Shown here: positions 12,265 to 35,959 of the stretch, piece after piece | How positions within the stretch are numbered: position 1 is the first letter of the stretch | Layout: each line of letters starts with the position of its first letter | Source of the DNA: Limisphaerales bacterium | GTDB taxonomy: Bacteria; Patescibacteriota; JACMRA01 | DNA: 64,000 nucleotides | Assembly: GCA_044361365.1 (NCBI GenBank) | Contig: JBIKIW010000001.1 | Coordinates: 2,501 to 66,500, forward strand | Reading direction: 5' to 3' | Program-made: the position numbers and the translations under genes | The notes under the pieces: model-generated | What the model saw: the letters and a program-made list of their open reading frames with translations, nothing else | The model's database searches: none | What the model was told of the DNA's origin: nothing

Positions 12265-14505
12265 TTAACTAAATAAAGTGTCTTGACCGCTAGTTTTTAT
12301 CTTCCACCTATCGTCTTCGGTTCTTTCAGCAATATCTTCCAAAACTCTTAAAATATCTTGGTTTTCAGGTGTGATTCCATTTTTAAGTAGTGGAATAATT
12401 TCCCAACAAATTTCATCAAAAGTAGGCAATTGTTTTTCTCGTTCTCTACGATTTAAAAGACTAATTAAATAGTATTTTATCCTTAATTCTAAAGGGATAT
12501 GAGTTCTAAATTTTTTATTTTCTCTGATAAAGTATTTTTGTGAATTAAAATCGTAGTCAAAATTGGCTGTCAAAATTGGAGTTAAATCGCTATATTCTTT
12601 GCTTAAAATATCCAAAAAACCAAGTTCCAAACCTTGGATAACCAAGGCGTCATTGATTTCTTCCAAAGTTGCTCCATGATTTTTAGCAATAATTCCTTCG
12701 ATAGTCTCCAAAACTATAGCTGCAATATCTGTACCCAAATTTGCTTTTAGGATATTTTTTGGACTGCGGACTTTTTTGAAATTGATAATCAGTTGTCCAG
12801 CGATTACAGTAAAAGGATTTTGTCGTTTTTTAAAGCTAGTTTGCCCATTTGCTTGCTTGACTGCTCCTGCGTACTCAAATCCCATCTTTTCAGCTGTTTC
12901 TACGATAATATGCCAGTAGTGGGGATCTTTGTGAGCAAAAACAAAACTCATCCAGCGATCAAATTTTAGCACCCTGTACATTTCAGATATACTTTTAGCT
13001 ATCAAGTCCGAATACTCATGTTTGGTCTTATTATGGCTACCTCCCTCGATGGCTTCTTTTTCAAAATCCTCTTCAGTTACGGGCAAATCCAGCCAAGCAT
13101 TCCACATTGCTGACAAATCCAAATAAGCAATTTTAGCTCCGTAAGGTGGGTCAGTATAAATATAATCTACAGATTCGTCTTCAACTTTATTCAAATCAGT
13201 AGCATCACCTTTATAGACTTGTAAATCTTGAATAGTTTTTTGGTTAATTTTGTCCTTGATTTCTTGTTTGGCTGAAATTATTTTCTTCACTTTGTTTTCA
13301 AATGAATTTATCAAATTTAATTCAACAGGAGTTTTAGCTACTCTGTATCTATAATAAGCGAAAGCAGCAGCATTTCCAGCATTTTCTCCACGAGAACTAG
13401 AGGCATGATAGGTTAAGTTGTGTTTGGTAACTGTACTTGAAAAAGCTAATAAAAGTGAATTTTGAATACTTTTGTCTTTTACTTTTTTGATTAAATGCTT
13501 CAAAAAGGCTAATTCGGCAGTTTGTAGCGAGCTAAATAATTCAGCTACAGTTTGGACATCGGCAGTTTTATCGAGCTTTATATTTTTTAGGTTTTGCCAT
13601 TCAGTTTTATATTTTTCAAGATATTCTTGAGGTTTTTCTTTAATTTTATTCTCTTCGTTTTCATACTTTTCTTTAATTTTTAAAAATTCTTCATGTAATT
13701 TAGCAATATCTGTAGGCTCACAAAGACTGTTGATTATAAAAACTGGTAAAGGATTGAGGTCGATTCCAATAGTTTTGCGAGCTTGCATTAAAGATTCGAT
13801 ACTAGTAACACCACTTCCTACAAAAGGATCTAGTACCAAATCTCCAGGCTGGGTAAAATGCTTGATATAATGACTAACAATATTCCAAGCTTGTTTGGTA
13901 AAATATCCGTGAACTCCAAAATGCCTAGCAGTTGACTGTTTTTTTACTGGTATTTCTTTTGGTAATGGTCGGTTCAAATAATCAAAGTCTGGTTGTAAAG
14001 CTGGCGACACGGTGGTCGCCTCTACGGAAAGGGAATTGGGTTTGTTGAAATTTTTTGGTGAAAGGAGTTTTTCTAACTTACCCCAATAATAATCAATTTC
14101 TTGAAGATCGAAACGAAGTAGGTTCTGGCTACTTTCTTTTTCCCAAAGGACAAATTCTCTTCCGTTGCACATTGCAAAATATTTAGCACGAATTTCTGGA
14201 TGAATAGCATAACCATAAACCTGTCCATCATCTTCACACTTTTCTTTTGGAGATTTCGCATCAAGAACACAAATTGAAAGCCCATTAGTTTGTAATAGAT
14301 AATCTGGTATTTCAGTTATTTGTCTTTTATTTGATCCAATTTTGTAAAAAGGATTTCTCAAACCTTTGTGTGATAAAATTTTAGCATCTTCTGTTGACCT
14401 AGAATAACCAAGTTTGATTAAAATTGGCATTATCAGGTCTTCCCGTACAGAGTCTTCTTTAAAATCTGGTGAATTTAACAAATCAAAGTTGAAGTTGGAA
14501 AACAT
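12265..14505 (-). CDS. Fusion of an HsdR_N-like PD-(D/E)xK fold with an amino (N6-A/N4-C) DNA methyltransferase
   Basis: N-terminus DSVREDLIMPILIKLGY...IPDYLL...VLDAKSP (nuclease-fold motif). SAM motif DPFVGSGVTS. Catalytic motif YTDPPYGAKI. 746 aa. Confidence 0.8.
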   Translation of the reverse strand: MFSNFNFDLLNSPDFKEDSVREDLIMPILIKLGYSRSTEDAKILSHKGLRNPFYKIGSNKRQITEIPDYLLQTNGLSICVLDAKSPKEKCEDDGQVYGYAIHPEIRAKYFAMCNGREFVLWEKESSQNLLRFDLQEIDYYWGKLEKLLSPKNFNKPNSLSVEATTVSPALQPDFDYLNRPLPKEIPVKKQSTARHFGVHGYFTKQAWNIVSHYIKHFTQPGDLVLDPFVGSGVTSIESLMQARKTIGIDLNPLPVFIINSLCEPTDIAKLHEEFLKIKEKYENEENKIKEKPQEYLEKYKTEWQNLKNIKLDKTADVQTVAELFSSLQTAELAFLKHLIKKVKDKSIQNSLLLAFSSTVTKHNLTYHASSSRGENAGNAAAFAYYRYRVAKTPVELNLINSFENKVKKIISAKQEIKDKINQKTIQDLQVYKGDATDLNKVEDESVDYIYTDPPYGAKIAYLDLSAMWNAWLDLPVTEEDFEKEAIEGGSHNKTKHEYSDLIAKSISEMYRVLKFDRWMSFVFAHKDPHYWHIIVETAEKMGFEYAGAVKQANGQTSFKKRQNPFTVIAGQLIINFKKVRSPKNILKANLGTDIAAIVLETIEGIIAKNHGATLEEINDALVIQGLELGFLDILSKEYSDLTPILTANFDYDFNSQKYFIRENKKFRTHIPLELRIKYYLISLLNRREREKQLPTFDEICWEIIPLLKNGITPENQDILRVLEDIAERTEDDRWKIKTSGQDTLFS

Positions 14506-17613: not shown

Positions 17614-20600
17614 ATGCCAAAAGATCTTCACCTTTTTGATAGTTACCAAAGAAAAGTTTTGCCGATCCAGTGCAGCGAAGAAGATAAACTAAAAATTTAC
17701 GGCTGTGGTCCAACAGTATATAATTATCAGTCTATTGGAAACATGCGAGCAGTCTGGTTACCGGATACAATTTCAAAAGTTGCTAAAATTGCCGGGTACA
17801 AAACTGAGTGGGTTAGTAACATTACCGATGTTGGGCATTTGGTGGATGATGGAGACGATGGTGAAGACAAAATCGAGAAAGGTGCCAAGCGAGAGCAAAA
17901 AACCGTGGAGGAAATTATCAACTTTTATGTACAAGATTTTAAGGATCAGTGCGGGGCATTAAACTTTGATTTGCCAGCTGGAAAATACCAACCAAAAGCT
18001 ACACAATATATTGGTGAACAAATGGTTTTGGCTTTGGAGCTACTGCGAGATGGGAAAGCTTACCTGACAGATGACGGGATTTATTTTGAGAATATCCCAC
18101 CAGATACAACATCTCCCCAACCCTTGTGGAACAGAGAAACACCCCCCCAACCCCCTTCAAAGGGGGAGTACATCAAGCTTACTAGTGTTCTTGAGGATAG
18201 GGATGTGTATTCTTCTACCTTTAGCCACCCCCCCAGCCTTCAAAGGGGGAGTACAAAGTCTAGGTTAGAACTTGCTCGGGAACACAAATTAAACAAAGAA
18301 GGTTGGGATTTTGTAGTTTATAACAATAAGTTGAATAAGTTTTCTAAAGAAATGCGAAAAAACCCCACGAAAGCGGAGAAAAAGTTTTGGGATGTTGTCC
18401 GTAAAGATAAGTTGTTGGGTGAATTTACCTGGAATCGACAAAAACCTATAGATAATTTTATAGCTGATTTTTACTGTAGGGAGTTGAAAGTGGTTATTGA
18501 AATTGATGGAGGTGTGCATAATTCTGAGCAAGCCAAAGGCTACGATAATGAGAGGGATAATATCCTAAGAGGTTTAGGTTTAGAAATGCTTAGATTTACA
18601 AATGATGAAATACTAGTTAATCCAAATTCAGTTTTGGCACAAATAAATGATTGGGCTAACTTATCACCTACGAGCTTTCAAGTCGAGAATACCCCCCCCT
18701 TGAGGGGGGTTGGGGGGATGTCTCCATTAAAGGGGTTAAGCCAAATTATTGAAACGATTCAAAATCTCCAAAAAGAAAAACCAAACAAACCTTTGATAAT
18801 AACTATCGACGGGCGAGGTGGGAGTGGAAAGTCAACTTTTGCTGAAAAATTGATTGAACTAATCCCAAATTCAGCTGCAATTGAACAAGACAAATTTTTG
18901 GAATTTATGAAAGGAATGGATACCAAATCTGACTCCTGGAACCATCGAAATTTTGAATTAGATAAACAATCTTTGCAGGAAGAATTGGAAAATCACAAAG
19001 ATAAAAAAGTGATAATCCTAGAAGGCATAAAAAGTTTTGCAAATATTGAATCTGATCTAAAAATTTGGCTTGATTCTAGTCAAAAAGATAACAAACAAAG
19101 AGCTAAAAAAAGAGATGTAAAAGGTGAAGTAAATTCAGATGGTTTTGAAATATTTTGGCAGGAGTTTGAGGTACATTCTCAAAAATATATTCAGGATTTT
19201 AAACCCGAGGAAAAAGCTGATTTCATAGTTTCGATAGAAGGTGATGGGTATGAGGTAATTTCAACTGATGACACAGAACTCGAAAAAATAGTTGGTACTA
19301 TTAATCGACTCAAAAAAGATAAAGGTGATAAACCAATTATAATAGCTATTGATGGTCGAGGCGGGAGTGGAAAGTCAATTTTAAGTAAGAAAATAGCTGA
19401 AAATCTCGAGGATGTAGAAGTTTTAGAATGTGATGATTTTTTTGATTTTGAAAAGCTAGATGAAAAGGTTTTTTTCTGGGATAAAGAAAGATTTAAAACT
19501 CAAATTCTAATACCACTGACTCAAGGCAAAGAAGCTATCTTTGAAAGCAATAATTGGATAGATCAAAAACTAGTCGGTAAAATAAATAAAACTGTGCAAT
19601 CAAAAAAATTTATTATACTTGATGGTTTGTGTACTTTGCAACAAGATTTGATCAAGTATTACGATCTTAATATTTGGGTTGAAAAAGAATTAGAATCATC
19701 ACTTCATGCCGCTAAAACACGAGATGTAAATGAGAGAAATAGAGCAGAACAAGAATTTCATGAATTGTGGGATAAATGGATTCCAGTTCAAGAGAAATAT
19801 ATCAATTTAGTAAAACCCCAGGAAAAAGCTGATATTATTATTTCTACTGAAAATGGTGGGTATGAGATTTTGGAAGATAGAACCAATCAAAACTACACCG
19901 GTCGTAACATAATCCAAACCGAAAAAAGAAATCCGCATGATTTTGCTTTGTGGAAATTTGTATCCGAAAATAGTTTGCAAAAATGGAAGTTTAATCAGTT
20001 TGAAAATACTGAAGATTTGATGATTGAGATTATTCAAACCCTCGATTCTAAAGATTACGATTTACCAAATAGATGGGGTTGCCCTGGTTGGCACAGTGAG
20101 TGCGTGGCGATGATTAGTGAGATACTTGGGCATCAGAGATTTTCTGGAAAGTTTGGGCATCTTCTCAAAGATAATTTGTATGAAATCGACATTCATACCG
20201 GCGGCGAAGATCATATCGATATTCACCACAAAAATGAAATTTTACAATCCAAAGCTCTTGGTTTTCATTTGTCCAAATATTGGGTTCACAACAAATTTGT
20301 GCTGGTTGATGCTAAAAAAATGAGTAAGAGTTTGGGGAATGTTTTTTTGGTTAAAGGCGATTTTAAAACAACAGGTTTTTATAGTTTCCAAAACCCGCCA
20401 ACTCAAGATTTTAGCGAGGAGTTTAAACAGCAGATTATTAAGAAATATAAGGAGCTGAAAATTTATGATTTGAATAAAAATCTAAGTGAAGTAGAAATAC
20501 CCCGTCAGTCTATGACTGCCACCCCTTCGCAAGCAAAGGGGAATATGGAGTTTGAAGAACAGTCCAAAAAAGAAAGTGTATTTTGGCAGAATTTTAGTTT

Positions 20601-21120
20601 CGACCCCATTGCTTACAGGTTGATGCTAATGGAACATCACTACACTGAACAGATGAATTTTACCTGGGAAAAGCTTTGGCAAAGCCAAATGAGACTCTGG
20701 AATTTGCGAAAAGATGCTGCTAGAATTATCAGTTTTGCAACTCAAAATAAAACTAAACCAGAAACCGATCAAAAACAAATTCAAATACTTTTGGACTATC
20801 TTTTAGATAATTTAGATACACCAAAATTTGTGGAAAAATACCAGAACTTTTTGGGAGATGTTATAAATGAAATTGCAAAAAATAATGTTTTAAACCCTAA
20901 AAATTTGGGAGCAATTCTATTTTGGGAAAAGGAACTTTTGAAGTTAAATTTTAATCCAAAAATATCACCTGAAGTTATTGAGTTAATCGAGCAAAGGCAA
21001 GAGGCAAAAATTGCCAAAGATTATCAAAAATCTGATCAAATTAGAGTTCAAATTCAGGCTCAAAATCTGCAAGTTGATGATTATAGTTGGGGTAGTGGAG
21101 TTTGGAAGAGATTAAATTAA
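17614..21120 (+). CDS. cysS: Cysteinyl-tRNA synthetase with two large in-frame insertions
   Basis: CysRS motifs: YGCGPTVYNY, RNPHDFALWK, GCPGWHSEC, DIHTGGEDHIDIHHKNE, KKMSKSLGN, MEHHYTEQMNF. The ORF is interrupted in frame at 18097-19890 (598 codons) and at about 20365-20592 (76 codons). Confidence 0.9.
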   Translation: MPKDLHLFDSYQRKVLPIQCSEEDKLKIYGCGPTVYNYQSIGNMRAVWLPDTISKVAKIAGYKTEWVSNITDVGHLVDDGDDGEDKIEKGAKREQKTVEEIINFYVQDFKDQCGALNFDLPAGKYQPKATQYIGEQMVLALELLRDGKAYLTDDGIYFENIPPDTTSPQPLWNRETPPQPPSKGEYIKLTSVLEDRDVYSSTFSHPPSLQRGSTKSRLELAREHKLNKEGWDFVVYNNKLNKFSKEMRKNPTKAEKKFWDVVRKDKLLGEFTWNRQKPIDNFIADFYCRELKVVIEIDGGVHNSEQAKGYDNERDNILRGLGLEMLRFTNDEILVNPNSVLAQINDWANLSPTSFQVENTPPLRGVGGMSPLKGLSQIIETIQNLQKEKPNKPLIITIDGRGGSGKSTFAEKLIELIPNSAAIEQDKFLEFMKGMDTKSDSWNHRNFELDKQSLQEELENHKDKKVIILEGIKSFANIESDLKIWLDSSQKDNKQRAKKRDVKGEVNSDGFEIFWQEFEVHSQKYIQDFKPEEKADFIVSIEGDGYEVISTDDTELEKIVGTINRLKKDKGDKPIIIAIDGRGGSGKSILSKKIAENLEDVEVLECDDFFDFEKLDEKVFFWDKERFKTQILIPLTQGKEAIFESNNWIDQKLVGKINKTVQSKKFIILDGLCTLQQDLIKYYDLNIWVEKELESSLHAAKTRDVNERNRAEQEFHELWDKWIPVQEKYINLVKPQEKADIIISTENGGYEILEDRTNQNYTGRNIIQTEKRNPHDFALWKFVSENSLQKWKFNQFENTEDLMIEIIQTLDSKDYDLPNRWGCPGWHSECVAMISEILGHQRFSGKFGHLLKDNLYEIDIHTGGEDHIDIHHKNEILQSKALGFHLSKYWVHNKFVLVDAKKMSKSLGNVFLVKGDFKTTGFYSFQNPPTQDFSEEFKQQIIKKYKELKIYDLNKNLSEVEIPRQSMTATPSQAKGNMEFEEQSKKESVFWQNFSFDPIAYRLMLMEHHYTEQMNFTWEKLWQSQMRLWNLRKDAARIISFATQNKTKPETDQKQIQILLDYLLDNLDTPKFVEKYQNFLGDVINEIAKNNVLNPKNLGAILFWEKELLKLNFNPKISPEVIELIEQRQEAKIAKDYQKSDQIRVQIQAQNLQVDDYSWGSGVWKRLN
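18140..18168 (+). repeat. Left terminal inverted repeat with internal hairpin cccccttcaaaggggg
   Basis: Read directly from the sequence; the hairpin spans 18151-18166. Confidence 0.7.
18226..18255 (+). repeat. Second, direct partial copy of the left repeat
   Basis: The 19-mer ccttcaaagggggagtaca is shared between 18154-18172 and 18237-18255. Confidence 0.7.
18691..18720 (-). repeat. Right terminal inverted repeat
   Basis: The sequence accccccccttgaggggggttggggggatg is the reverse-complement match to 18140-18168. Confidence 0.7.
20497..20544 (+). repeat. GC-rich two-hairpin element (about 48 nt), copy 1, in frame inside cysS
   Basis: ataCCCCGTCAGTCtatGACTGCCACCCCTTcgcaagcAAAGGGGAAt. The same architecture occurs at 34125-34172 and 34260-34310 on the opposite strand. 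Confidence 0.7.
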
Positions 21121-33532: not shown

Positions 33533-35386
33533 TTATTCTAATTCAAACATTGACTCAACTTCAGACTCCCACTCATCATGTATATTTTTAGCTACAGGTG
33601 ATGGAATTTGATCTTTATAAACTGGCACATTTGGATTAGAAAAACCTTCTGGAATTTGCTTATAAACTTCATAAAAAATCTTTTTCCCTGCAACCAAATT
33701 CAAATTATTTTCAGGTTCATCTTGAGTAATTTTTGGAGGTGGGGTTGGAGTGTCAAAATCTTGAATTTCGTACGATTCTTTAGGTGGTTCTTCGTAGCTA
33801 ATATCTTGAAAATTTTCTGGTTCAAATTTTGGATTTGGAGCTGTTGATTTTGCCCGAATTATATTTTCAATTTGAGGTGCAAATTTTAATTCAGAAGTTA
33901 AAAATTCTTTCAAAAAGTTTTGCAAAGTTGTCGACTTTAATTGGCTCAAAAAAAGATTGGTTGTGACACTAAAAATTGCCTTGTTATTTTCTACACTTTC
34001 TAACCTCAAATCGTGACCCAACATTTTTAAAATCGTAGGTGCGTTCGAAGCCTTCAACATCTTAGAAAAAAGTGAATTTGAGTTTGTATTTAAATCACTT
34101 TCTAGGTTGGAATTTTGAGTAAGCAATTCCCCTTTTGAAAGGGGTGGCACCGAAGGTGACGGGGCATGTTTGCCACTTTCAGATTCAACTAAATCAACTT
34201 TTTTTATGCTCGATAAATTTTCTTTTGATTCACTTTCATGCTTGGAACCTGGAGTCAATAATTCCCCTTTTTCAAAAGGGTTGGCAGCGATAGCTGACGG
34301 GGTATGTTTGTCGTTTTGAGAATAAGCAAAATCAACTTTTCTTACCTCTGAATTTACTACAGTAGATCTGTTCTCAACTGGCTTTTTTTTTACACTAACC
34401 ATTCCTTCTTTCTGATTCAAATTTGCCTGCAAAAGTGCAATTGTTTGAGCTATCGAAGTCACTGGTAATTTCCAACTTAAAACCTCAGCCGTAGTCGGAA
34501 CCAGGCTACCATAATCTGAATTTCCAGACAAAGTTTGGTCTAATAAAAATTCTAAAAATTGTCCCAAAAAAGTTTCCGCATCAAAGTTAATTTGAGTTAG
34601 TTTTTGTAAAAAGTTTTTATCTAAATTTTGACTTACAATTTTATCTGCAATTTCTACCAAAAAAGTTTCTGGAATTACACCCAAAATCTCAGCAGTTTTT
34701 TCAACCGAAAATTCATCCAAATTATAACTAGAAACTGTCTCCATGAGGTTGATTGCATCGCGTTGACTTCCTTCAGCTCTTTTAGCAATCAGCTCCAAAC
34801 TTTCTGTGTCAATTTTCAAAGTTTCAGCCTTAGCTATGAATTGTAATCTACCTACAATATTTTGAATTGTATGAGACGAAAGTGGAAGCTTGGTAAGCCT
34901 AGAAAGTACAGTAGGTAAAAGCTTTTCGGGATTGGTGGTGGCAAGCAAAAATACTACATGTTTTGGTGGCTCTTCTAGGGTTTTGAGTAATGCACTCATG
35001 GCACTTTTGGACAGCATGTGTACCTCGTCGATGATATAGATTTTGTACTTACCCGAAAGTGCTGGGGTGCTGGCGTTTTCAATAAGTTGTCTGATGTTAT
35101 CAATCCCGGTATTTGAGGCTGCATCTAGCTCGATAATATCAATTTTGGCTTCAGGGTAAGTTTCTACCTGGTTCAAAAGATTCGCAAAAATCCTGGCTAG
35201 TGTGGTTTTTCCAACTCCTCGTGAACCCGAAAAAAGATAGGCTTGTTTGATCAAATTTTTGGCGATTGCATTTTGCAAAACTGATTTTACTAACTCCTGA
35301 CCAACCACATCTTCAAAAGACTGGGGGCGATACTTGTTGTACCATGACATATACTTATTTCTTGGGTTAAAAATAACTTTAGTCAA
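33533..35386 (-). CDS. dnaX: DNA polymerase III gamma/tau subunit
   Basis: YRPQSFEDVVGQ, GSRGVGKTT, IYIIDEVHMLS, LLKTLEEPP, SRL. The linker region contains the tandem repeat listed below. Confidence 0.9.
   Translation of the reverse strand: MTKVIFNPRNKYMSWYNKYRPQSFEDVVGQELVKSVLQNAIAKNLIKQAYLFSGSRGVGKTTLARIFANLLNQVETYPEAKIDIIELDAASNTGIDNIRQLIENASTPALSGKYKIYIIDEVHMLSKSAMSALLKTLEEPPKHVVFLLATTNPEKLLPTVLSRLTKLPLSSHTIQNIVGRLQFIAKAETLKIDTESLELIAKRAEGSQRDAINLMETVSSYNLDEFSVEKTAEILGVIPETFLVEIADKIVSQNLDKNFLQKLTQINFDAETFLGQFLEFLLDQTLSGNSDYGSLVPTTAEVLSWKLPVTSIAQTIALLQANLNQKEGMVSVKKKPVENRSTVVNSEVRKVDFAYSQNDKHTPSAIAANPFEKGELLTPGSKHESESKENLSSIKKVDLVESESGKHAPSPSVPPLSKGELLTQNSNLESDLNTNSNSLFSKMLKASNAPTILKMLGHDLRLESVENNKAIFSVTTNLFLSQLKSTTLQNFLKEFLTSELKFAPQIENIIRAKSTAPNPKFEPENFQDISYEEPPKESYEIQDFDTPTPPPKITQDEPENNLNLVAGKKIFYEVYKQIPEGFSNPNVPVYKDQIPSPVAKNIHDEWESEVESMFELE
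34125..34172 (-). repeat. GC-rich two-hairpin element, copy 2 (inside dnaX)
   Basis: Sense (minus) strand: caaacatgCCCCGTCACCttcGGTGCCACCCCTTtcaaAAGGGGAAtt, translated as KHAPSPSVPPLSKGEL. Confidence 0.7.
34260..34310 (-). repeat. GC-rich two-hairpin element, copy 3 (inside dnaX, 135 nt from copy 2)
   Basis: Sense (minus) strand: caaacataCCCCGTCAGCtatcGCTGCCAACCCTTttgaaAAAGGGGAAtt, translated as KHTPSAIAANPFEKGEL. Confidence 0.7.
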
Positions 35387-35471: not shown

Positions 35472-35959
35472 GGGGATGACCTAGTTTTGACAGTTGGATA
35501 TTGGCTAAAACATACTAGATAGTTTTGCTTATTTTTTCTATAAAAACGAGTAGCACTTTTAAATGCAAACAATTCAACTTCTGCCTTTGAGAAAATCGGA
35601 GGACGTATCGCACAAGCTTTAGGTCTCGAGATCACTCAGGGCGTACCCCAAACAGCAATCGCCTAGTTTAGTTGCCACTTATTGGCAGAATATCCCTCCG
35701 GATAAAATCTAAACATGGGGTACACAATTACTTTTATATTGGATTTGGCGTAAGAGTAAATTGTAGAAAAACAACACAAATTCCTTGGTTAAGTTGTTAG
35801 CGGGCTAACCGAGTACAATGCTAACAGTGTGCTTAAAACTTTTTTGATTTGGTTTGAGATCACACTTAAAACAATTAAATCAAATATGCGTCTAGTTTGA
35901 AAAAGTGTTTTAGACCCAAATCCAATTGGACGGGGGTGCAACTCCCCCCATCTCCACCA
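35472..35959 (+). ncRNA. ssrA: tmRNA (SsrA)
   Basis: The 5' GGGGATG pairs with the 3' CATCTCC, including the G3-U pair, followed by ACCA. The T-arm-like GGACGGGGGTGCAACTCCCCCC precedes it. A candidate tag frame starts at GCA 35565. The length of 488 nt is at the long end for tmRNA. Confidence 0.85.

Follow-up and report, generated by a model that had tools for sequence, protein, structure and literature searches.

The 64-kb window analysed here (the whole stretch of DNA taken from contig JBIKIW010000001.1, about 33% G+C) carries cysS, the gene of cysteinyl-tRNA synthetase (CysRS), and dnaX. Within these two genes lie three copies of a GC-rich DNA module of about 50 nt that combines two hairpins, and the present work concerns the nature and origin of this module. 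The catalytic core of CysRS is interrupted by a cassette encoding a DUF559 domain, by two P-loop kinase-like domains and by one solo module, whereas alignment places the two modules of dnaX in the variable linker after domain III (Table 1).

Three copies of a double-hairpin module in cysS and dnaX

Each copy follows the architecture CCCCGTCA-hairpin-GCCAnCCCTT-loop-AAGGGGAAT. The strict pattern CCCCGTCA-N6-16-GCCANCCCTT matches the window exactly three times, at 20500-20527 (+), 34139-34164 (-) and 34276-34302 (-), with no match in any of 100 dinucleotide shuffles of the window and none expected by chance. A covariance model (R1), built from a MAFFT alignment of 55 members of the wider family, gives the three copies 64.0, 51.1 and 49.7 bits (E = 3e-14 to 1e-10) and nothing else in the window more than 10 bits, so that the three double-hairpin copies first noticed in an initial annotation of this DNA are real. 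DNA folding recovers both hairpins in every copy, at modest z-scores against shuffles (-1.2 to -2.9). Hairpin 1 has loops of 3-4 nt (TAT, TTC(G) and TATC), and loops of the TTCG type are frequent in the family. Given that single-sequence folding energies beat shuffles just modestly, the structural claim rests on the covariation described below.

All three copies are in frame and forward relative to the coding strand, and two reading frames are used. The initial annotation was right about the frames: in cysS the CCCC block begins with codon position 1, in both dnaX copies with position 2, and different peptides result, IPRQSMTATPSQAKGN and APSPSVPPLSKGEL; peptides that cross the module would span EIPRQSMTATPSQAKGNMEF and HAPSPSVPPLSKGELL. 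No Rfam family matched the module in a gathering-threshold scan of the window or in a permissive scan of 20350-20650, and no terminator was called at the module site in cysS. The window copies lie inside open reading frames (ORFs), and no T-run follows their hairpin 2.

Table 1. Features of cysS and dnaX in the window (positions of the whole stretch)
Feature	Position	Strand	Details
cysS	17614..21120	+	1168 aa; Pfam tRNA-synt_1e 2.7e-50, DUF559 3e-31, PRK 1.7e-12
Solo double-hairpin module in cysS	20494..20548	+	R1 64.0 bits, E = 2.9e-14; pattern match; fold
CGTC tag and CCA tail of cysS module	CGTC 20503-20506; CCA 20519-20521	+	sequence
Hairpin 1 of cysS module	20506-20510 with 20514-20518	+	CAGTC/GACTG
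Hairpin 2 of cysS module	20522-20527 with 20536-20541	+	CCCCTT/AAGGGG
Whole DUF559 cassette, in frame in cysS	18113..18745 (approximate limits)	+	DUF559 domain 18328-18648 (Pfam)
Simple modules, 5' side of cysS cassette	18140-18169, 18224-18251	+	C-run, C-run/loop/G-run; no hairpin 1
Simple module, 3' side of cysS cassette	18692-18717	+	C-run/loop/G-run, G-run; no hairpin 1
dnaX	33533..35386	-	Pfam DNA_pol3_delta2 1.1e-31; start probably ATG at 35350, giving 605 aa
dnaX copy A (upstream in gene)	34257..34308	-	R1 49.7 bits, E = 9.5e-11; peptide ..HTPSAIAANPFEKGEL..
dnaX copy B (downstream in gene)	34122..34170	-	R1 51.1 bits, E = 4.3e-11; peptide ..HAPSPSVPPLSKGEL..
Diverged tandem duplication in dnaX linker	34067..34342 (approximate)	-	about 2 x 138 nt (46 codons), one module per unit

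The module belongs to a repeat family found across phyla

The module is not confined to the window. A scan of 185,579 species-representative genomes with the strict pattern returned, among the matches listed, at least about 55 clearly homologous copies from low-GC metagenome-assembled genomes, about half of the matches listed being chance hits in GC-rich genomes. The family consensus is (A)CTA-CCCC-GTCA-[stem/loop/stem]-TG-CCA-CCCCTTC-[loop]-GAAGGGG-AATTT, in which the blocks CTACCCCGTCA, TGCCACCCCTTC and GAAGGGGAATTT are conserved around a variable hairpin. Hosts include Ignavibacteria, Kapaibacteria, Endomicrobia, Rickettsiales, other Alphaproteobacteria and Cloacimonadota, as well as Thiovulum, Francisella, Ghiorsea, Acidobacteria and unclassified bacteria. 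Family genomes often hold several copies per 8-kb locus, nearly all of them intergenic or at ORF boundaries (about 1 in 54 is clearly mid-ORF), and inverted dimers and alternating arrays are frequent, much like the structures formed by repetitive extragenic palindromic (REP) sequences and bacterial interspersed mosaic elements (BIMEs). In the intergenic copies a T-run often follows hairpin 2 (GAAGGGGAATTTTT). Among viral contigs only six loci match the strict pattern, which on present evidence makes phage carriage no major route of spread.

Hairpin 1 was left unconstrained in the retrieval pattern, and the 55 sequences were aligned by plain MAFFT without fitting to any structure. Its inner pairs are nevertheless occupied by every Watson-Crick combination (GC in 34, AU in 6, CG in 6 and UA in 6 at one position; CG in 18, GC in 14, AU in 8 and UA in 8 at the other), and 94% of cells are paired; sliding the 3' partners lowers this to 43-56%. 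A:T opens the stem in 54 of the 55 sequences, and stem length is 4-5 bp for the window copies as against 4-8 bp across the family. The compensatory changes that had been proposed from the three window copies are therefore borne out by covariation across the family. As a gauge of folding at the RNA level, G:T and A:C mismatches were compared for strand asymmetry with the loop-adjacent pair set aside, and were balanced (7 and 10).

The uniform orientation of the window copies, also remarked on in the initial annotation, has a simple explanation in stop codons. Stops are absent from 82% of forward frames in the family but from only 33% of reverse frames, the reverse strand of the module carrying TGAC-GGGG-TAG; since forward frames are mostly open and reverse frames mostly not, copies in coding sequence would be found in the forward orientation.

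Modules form the inverted ends of DUF559 cassettes

When the DUF559 domain from the window's cysS was used as a tblastn query, two family loci, L002 (Pyrinomonadaceae) and L072, proved to have a DUF559 ORF adjoining a module, and clustering of neighbour ORFs added a third, L040; in these three independent loci the DUF559 gene lies within 100 nt of a module. Among the ORFs within 400 nt of modules at 45 loci, DUF559 was the only repeat-linked recurrent neighbour, and no transposase family recurred. A REP-associated tyrosine transposase (RAYT) or other transposase was considered as the neighbour and set aside, the other ORF clusters being ABC ATPases, surface proteins and translated repeats.

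The association was also examined from the side of the gene. Eighty metagenomic DUF559 loci, with the gene oriented +, were scanned with R1, which gave 23 hits at E < 1e-3. All 10 hits within 250 nt upstream of the DUF559 ORF were on the - strand, and 6 of the 8 within 250 nt downstream were on the + strand. The resulting layout is 5'-AATCCCCTCC..GGAGGGG-TG[hairpin]CGGGGTGGT - DUF559 - ACCACCCCG[hairpin]CACCCCTCC..GGAGGGGATT-3', with hairpin 2 outermost at the termini, and these stereotyped flanks on opposite strands indicate that the double-hairpin module is the terminal inverted repeat of a DUF559 cassette. The hairpin 1 stem differs between the two ends of a single cassette and both stems still pair, which points to structure rather than sequence as what is kept.

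When the module was defined generically, as a C-run plus a C/G hairpin, 145 were found within 200 nt of DUF559 ORFs (30 kb of sequence) versus 34 in the 150 kb farther out, and 64 of the 80 loci had at least one. Modules of the double-hairpin subfamily itself flank DUF559 in L002, L040, L072, L162 and L187. The same association of gene and repeat is present in cultured hosts, namely on plasmid pAQ6 of Picosynechococcus PCC 7002 and in Pseudanabaena, Azospirillum lipoferum and Photobacterium. A further DUF559 locus (L134, 1120-2199) sits amid a regular array of module-like units of 71-76% G+C, all on the + strand and 152 nt apart on either side of the gene (1120, 1272; 1848, 2000, 2155).

The DUF559 protein is a Vsr-like PD-(D/E)XK nuclease by its fold assignment, with an intact IEIDG..H motif, and its closest solved relative is the 'endonuclease-like protein' of PDB entry 3HRL (5.5e-17). 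Vsr-like nucleases are able to act as homing endonucleases (PMC3239194). DUF559 proteins are also enriched, with an odds ratio of 14, among predicted "programmed inversion" targets (PMC9881135), as would be expected of genes flanked by inverted repeats. In the open-access literature we found no description of hairpin repeats flanking DUF559, and nothing relevant on Vsr-like proteins with REPs, on palindromic elements in Patescibacteria or on homing endonucleases in the candidate phyla radiation (CPR).

Whole cassettes enter host genes in frame

Eight of the 80 loci have DUF559 embedded in an open frame of 476 to 958 aa or more, well beyond the size of the nuclease itself. Pfam identified the host protein in six of these eight. 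HsdR (type I restriction) and HsdM account for two each, with the cassette of one HsdR lying within the SWI2/SNF2 ATPase domain, and the remaining hosts are EPSP synthase and a B12-binding/MeaB fusion protein. The two others had no Pfam host, L162 being a frame of 476 aa with no host domain and L178 having a DUF559 with an internal stop. In the EPSP synthase case (L190) the outer ends of both modules coincide exactly with the points where the host sequence breaks off and continues.

No Rfam intron was found in the window and no intein domain among the Pfam hits of the cassette-bearing host ORFs, and by eye the cassette junctions show Pro/Gly-rich module peptides with no residues like those of intein splice junctions. 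In-frame cassettes appear, then, to be simply translated through. Their insertion sites are diverse, comprising two sites in CysRS, two in HsdR, two in HsdM, and those in EPSP synthase and the B12/MeaB protein, and to judge from these sequences this diversity argues against homing to a single site.

History of the insertions in cysS and dnaX

The initial annotation had described about 76 extra codons around the cysS module. An insertion is indeed present, but its size was overestimated: most of the segment is conserved, since TGFYSFQNPP..FS.EFK.QI.KKYKELK and FWQNF in this C-terminal part are common to all 13 aligned CysRS relatives. Compared with its closest homologue, P0001 (84% identical), this part of the window's CysRS is longer by only 22 codons (about 66 nt). 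They sit in a short variable linker and include the module, which is missing from P0001 (locus L125).

A second CysRS relative, P0005, has a complete DUF559 cassette in the same short linker, between KELK.YDL and FW.NF. It could therefore be proposed that solo modules are footprints, in other words that full DUF559 cassettes once occupied the module sites of cysS and dnaX until a deletion took away their ORF and one of their ends, with no need for a unit of 50 nt to move; that cassettes do enter host genes in frame would fit such a scheme. However, no remnant of a second end or of an ORF lies beside any of the three window copies, the P0005 cassette ends in modules of a subtype that lacks hairpin 1, and the loci retrieved from other genomes contain more solo and dimer modules than cassettes, just as REPs are more numerous than RAYT genes. 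We consider this origin unlikely.

The window's own DUF559 cassette occupies a different site of cysS, which P0001 reads straight across, the cassette being absent there. Its modules are inside-out (C, C, G - ORF - C, G, G) relative to canonical cassettes. The region 18113-19950 holds this cassette together with two tandem P-loop (uridine-kinase/PRK-like) domains with IDGRGGSGKS motifs, and P0001 has one P-loop domain only and no DUF559.

In dnaX the two modules sit in a diverged tandem duplication. The core-to-core spacing is 138 nt (46 codons) both in the window and in the relative P0122 (locus L212), and gapped pairwise alignment shows that the likeness of the two units extends beyond the cores by about 40 nt on the upstream and about 45 nt on the downstream side; the 24 nt preceding each module in P0122 are near-identical. 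Tandem Repeats Finder made no call for the 138-nt duplication, which rests on the gapped pairwise alignments. From these sequences the two dnaX copies are most simply explained by one insertion followed by tandem duplication. The two copies were correctly recognised in the initial annotation, but they do not appear to be independent, and the insertions in the window probably total two, not three. In L040 (801-969), two identical modules lie 139 nt apart in near-identical tandem units directly upstream of the DUF559 gene. This period nearly equals that of dnaX, and modules may thus promote local tandem duplication.

Comparison of orthologues with and without the element, which had been suggested as a check, gives a consistent history. 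The closest relative, from sample SRR29492075 and 84% identical in CysRS, lacks the cysS module and has both dnaX modules at the same positions. In its DnaX (P0122, L212), copy B differs from that of the window by two substitutions, whereas copy A has decayed: both of its stems (ATACCACGTCCGCTATTGCGTTCGCCAC..) have changed without compensation. No modules are present in DnaX proteins of 65% identity or below, and only 2 of the 240 CysRS and DnaX homologues retrieved carry a translated module, namely the window's own DnaX and P0122. Such gain, tolerance and decay among relatives indicates, at the level of sequence comparison, that the module is passenger DNA without host function rather than an RNA or peptide selected by the host. 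The insertions are no assembly artefacts, as the exact 605-aa DnaX is indexed in 65 blocks of the metagenome collection and was seen on 23 contigs, and the exact CysRS was found on 6 contigs from several samples.

The same data speak to whether a Pro/Gly-rich linker is itself selected in CysRS and DnaX, the similarity in DNA being a by-product or a coincidence. All window copies are translated, all lie in linkers, and the dnaX peptides are conserved between the window and P0122. However, the reading frames of cysS and dnaX differ, the DNA unit is mostly intergenic in many phyla, homologues with a translated module are as rare as just described, and the match is far beyond chance according to both the shuffles and the R1 E-values. 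A protein-level motif is on these grounds extremely improbable, and in practice the frame difference and the intergenic homologues would already refute it, in agreement with the earlier view that conservation lies at the nucleotide level.

The dnaX linker also contains A-runs. About 35 nt upstream of copy B is an in-frame A AAA AAA heptamer (34207-34194, -), at which a -1 shift would run into a stop (AGT TGA). A run of nine A at 34391 (-), 62 codons earlier, has a nearby -1 stop too, and the A7 motif is kept in both duplicated units of P0122. These runs may be a gamma/tau frameshift or slippage site, or may merely follow from AT-rich composition. In Escherichia coli dnaX the frameshift occurs at A AAA AAG followed by a stem-loop, and stimulatory structures typically lie 5-9 nt from the slippery site. 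By this comparison, dnaX could have recruited its module to stimulate, from downstream, a programmed -1 frameshift or transcriptional slippage that yields a short gamma subunit, for which the heptamer, the stop one codon after the shift and the retention of the motif in P0122 would speak. We think this very unlikely, as the spacing of about 35 nt is far longer than is typical, A-runs and out-of-frame stops (the second run at 34391 among them) are common in a genome of 33% GC, and the cysS copy has no such slippery context.

Relation to known repeats and mobile elements

Of the repeats described so far, the CGTC-tagged REPs (Di Nocera, De Gregorio & Rocco 2013, PMC3733652) come closest. They combine a CGTC tag, a hairpin (stem of 8-9 bp beginning with A:T, loop of 4-5 nt) and a CCA tail. 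Known from several phyla, they form singles and inverted dimers, include RPE-4 and RPE-6 of Rickettsia conorii and dRS3 of Neisseria, have intragenic, translated copies in replication/repair and aminoacyl-tRNA synthetase genes, and were reported without a dedicated transposase or enzyme gene (PMC3733652). Hairpin 1 of the present module carries their signature, reading CGTC-A[stem]T-G-CCA: all three window copies have CC-CGTC-A.., GCCA follows hairpin 1 in every copy (both CGTC and GCCA were required by the family retrieval pattern), and the last C of CGTC is able to pair with the G preceding CCA. In contrast, the stem is here only 4-5 bp (4-8 bp in the family), about half the length, the hairpin is placed between two C-runs with an obligatory second hairpin CCCCTTC..GAAGGGG, and the modules flank DUF559 genes. 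Strict CGTC..CCA hairpins flank DUF559 in only 2 of the 80 loci, which limits the DUF559 link to the level of a subfamily. A link for all CGTC-tagged REPs was considered and dropped on this count, the flanks in Neisseria and Azospirillum being other GC-rich modules: the DUF559 gene of A. lipoferum has CCCCTCTCCC..GGGGAGAGGGG modules at its sides instead of CGTC-1 REPs. The Neisseria homologue of 3HRL lies in a repeat-rich carA-carB spacer (L214/L216, 1250-2200). Its flanks consist of DNA uptake sequences and of CCCCGTC-CTCTCTCCC..GGGAGAGAG and CCCTCCCCCACGGGGGAGGG modules in direct orientation, and dRS3 is not among them.

A parallel had been drawn to the Rickettsia palindromic elements (RPE-1 and others), with the reservation that the sequence family is a different one. 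The parallel holds. Both are palindromic, both leave the reading frame intact and lengthen an essential protein where an extra peptide is tolerated, and in both the copies decay with time; here both host ORFs are intact and recur in many samples. The present module differs in its phylum, in being a GC-rich unit in an AT-rich genome, in its two-hairpin architecture, and in having DUF559 as a coding partner and a family spread across phyla instead of one genus. To call the sequence family different was too strong, however, given the CGTC tag, the A:T first pair and the CCA tail that it shares with CGTC-tagged REPs (PMC3733652). As far as peptides alone can tell, the CGTC-1 copies of R. conorii (VIPAKAGI) imply a stem ATTCCCGC/GCGGGAAT, unlike the stems here.

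With REPs, REP doublets (REPINs) and their RAYT genes, together termed REPtrons, the family shares hairpin repeats that occur solo, as inverted dimers and in arrays, and that flank in inverted orientation a single-copy gene for a presumed trans-mobilising enzyme. Unlike in REPtrons, the flanked gene encodes a PD-(D/E)XK Vsr-like nuclease and not an IS200/IS605-type Y1 (HUH) transposase, there is no GTAG 5' of the hairpin (with CTA-CCCC as consensus, GTAG falls on the reverse strand and at its 3' end, and the window copies have ATA and ATG), the module sequence is conserved across phyla, and whole cassettes enter host ORFs in frame. Vsr-like (EDxHD) homing endonucleases such as I-Bth0305I (PMC3239194) are likewise small nucleases of this fold in a selfish insertion inside host genes, but theirs are located in group I introns or inteins and have one cognate site, whereas DUF559 cassettes have neither, are bounded by hairpins and occupy many unrelated sites. 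The GC clusters, double-hairpin elements and repetitive hairpin-forming elements of mitochondria (PMC4478555, PMC2800124) are also GC-rich hairpins of 30-60 nt in AT-rich compact genomes, sometimes in frame in coding sequence; being organellar, with no sequence relationship to the double-hairpin family and no DUF559 gene, they are functional analogues only. Finally, the module shares its sequence with both ends of a longer element, as a miniature inverted-repeat transposable element (MITE) does, and MITE-resembling inverted dimers exist in other genomes, although the window copies are single modules without a partner arm and no duplication borders the cassette in L190.

Solo modules as probable parts of a selfish cassette

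We consider it likely that the three sequences are solo copies of the end-repeat module of a widespread selfish DUF559-nuclease cassette. What was observed directly comprises membership in the family, covariation in hairpin 1, modules as inverted cassette ends, insertion of whole cassettes, presence and absence among relatives, and one decayed copy. The remainder is a proposal. With the module, CTA-CCCC-GTCA[variable stem-loop]TG-CCA-CCCCTTC[loop]GAAGGGG-AATT, as the terminal inverted repeat of the cassette, cassettes, inverted dimers and solo modules would spread at the DNA level within and between genomes. In a compact low-GC genome, copies would have landed in variable surface linkers of cysS and dnaX and survived there, as forward modules are mostly free of stops and would be translated as short Pro/Ser/Gly-rich linkers, and the single dnaX insertion would later have been duplicated in tandem. 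The hairpins would serve the element and not the host gene, probably as structures recognised or formed during mobilisation, and would decay once a copy is immobile.

We infer that the DUF559 nuclease may be the mobilising enzyme of the cassette and, in trans, of solo and dimer modules; the solo modules would then have been moved in trans, or left after loss of the rest of the cassette. By analogy with REP/RAYT systems and Vsr-like homing endonucleases (PMC3239194), the DUF559 protein probably recognises hairpin or cruciform DNA at the ends. The suggestion in the initial annotation that the copies may be non-autonomous derivatives of a DUF559 element is supported by independent data, as the modules are the inverted repeats of DUF559 cassettes in other genomes. 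The cassette in cysS is of another, simpler subtype without hairpin 1 and is inside-out, and the DUF559 link therefore rests on those other genomes.

Several points weigh against this interpretation and have to be set beside the evidence above. The DUF559 in cysS is the only one in the window, its termini are of the different, inside-out kind, and the 64 kb hold no matching autonomous partner. The 80 loci were the best matches to a query made from module-associated proteins, and the association may be weaker across DUF559 as a whole. Flanking repeats in Neisseria are direct, not inverted. No target-site duplication is present at the cassette ends in L190, and no precise empty site was obtained, the closest empty cysS allele being too diverged in the linker. 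Covariation in the hairpin could also come from hairpin-templated repair, with no need for selection. To our knowledge, nuclease activity or mobility has been demonstrated for no DUF559 protein of this kind.

Another possibility is that the repeat is a REP-like element that benefits its host as RNA, for instance as a terminator or as a stabiliser of 3' mRNA ends, and that DUF559 genes merely sit among such repeats. Copies in other genomes are almost all intergenic and often at ORF ends, the T-run that often follows hairpin 2 there (GAAGGGGAATTTTT) resembles that of an intrinsic terminator, and REPs are generally thought to be transcribed (PMC3733652). In the window, however, the copies are inside ORFs and have no T-run, with no terminator called at the cysS site; modules flank DUF559 in both orientations and enter host ORFs with it as one unit, copy A decays in P0122, and no Rfam family matches. 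A benefit to the host as RNA seems improbable on balance, and we prefer the reading as solo ends of a selfish cassette.

A wider and bolder proposal, which we put forward only tentatively, is that DUF559 and its hairpin inverted repeats form a cross-phylum class of selfish elements, a second kind of 'REPtron' with a Vsr-like PD-(D/E)XK nuclease in place of an HUH transposase. Such a class would seed solo and dimer repeats and insert in frame into essential and restriction-modification genes with neither intron nor intein. At its boldest, DUF559 might be the missing mobilising enzyme for at least part of the CGTC-tagged REPs, the superfamily to which RPE-4 and RPE-6 belong.

Other features of the window and of related loci

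An isolated GC-rich stretch at 13989-14040, within the ORF 12265-14505 (-), contains a perfect 6-bp hairpin, GGCGAC acggtg GTCGCC, followed by AAAGGGAAT. It has no score with the module model and may be a decayed or an unrelated repeat. At 35472-35959 (+), Rfam calls a transfer-messenger RNA (tmRNA) of 488 nt against a model of 374 positions (72.7 bits), and ARAGORN reported no tmRNA; the gene may have an insertion or be permuted. In the relative with P0005 (L124, 1-1957), cysS is preceded, at a distance of 44 nt, by the end of a Cas12a/Cpf1-like gene with REC1, PI-like and RuvC domains.

Implications

In-frame palindromic repeats are already known from Rickettsia and from surveys of REPs. What appears to be new, in the literature searched, is the cross-phylum double-hairpin family, its place as the inverted ends of DUF559 cassettes, and the recurrent in-frame insertion of such cassettes into housekeeping and restriction-modification genes. 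For annotation, the Pro/Gly-rich PL..GG..GG and PRQ..ATP..KGN segments would be translated repeats and not functional motifs. The cassette would account for the puzzling occurrence of DUF559 inside unrelated proteins and for its prediction as an 'inversion target', and it would supply a mechanism for unusual in-frame insertions in housekeeping proteins of compact CPR-like genomes. The large non-RAYT class of CGTC-tagged REPs is so far without an identified mobilising enzyme (PMC3733652). For the CGTC/CCA double-hairpin subfamily, to which it is tied by inverted-flank architecture and by co-insertion into host ORFs, DUF559 is a testable candidate.

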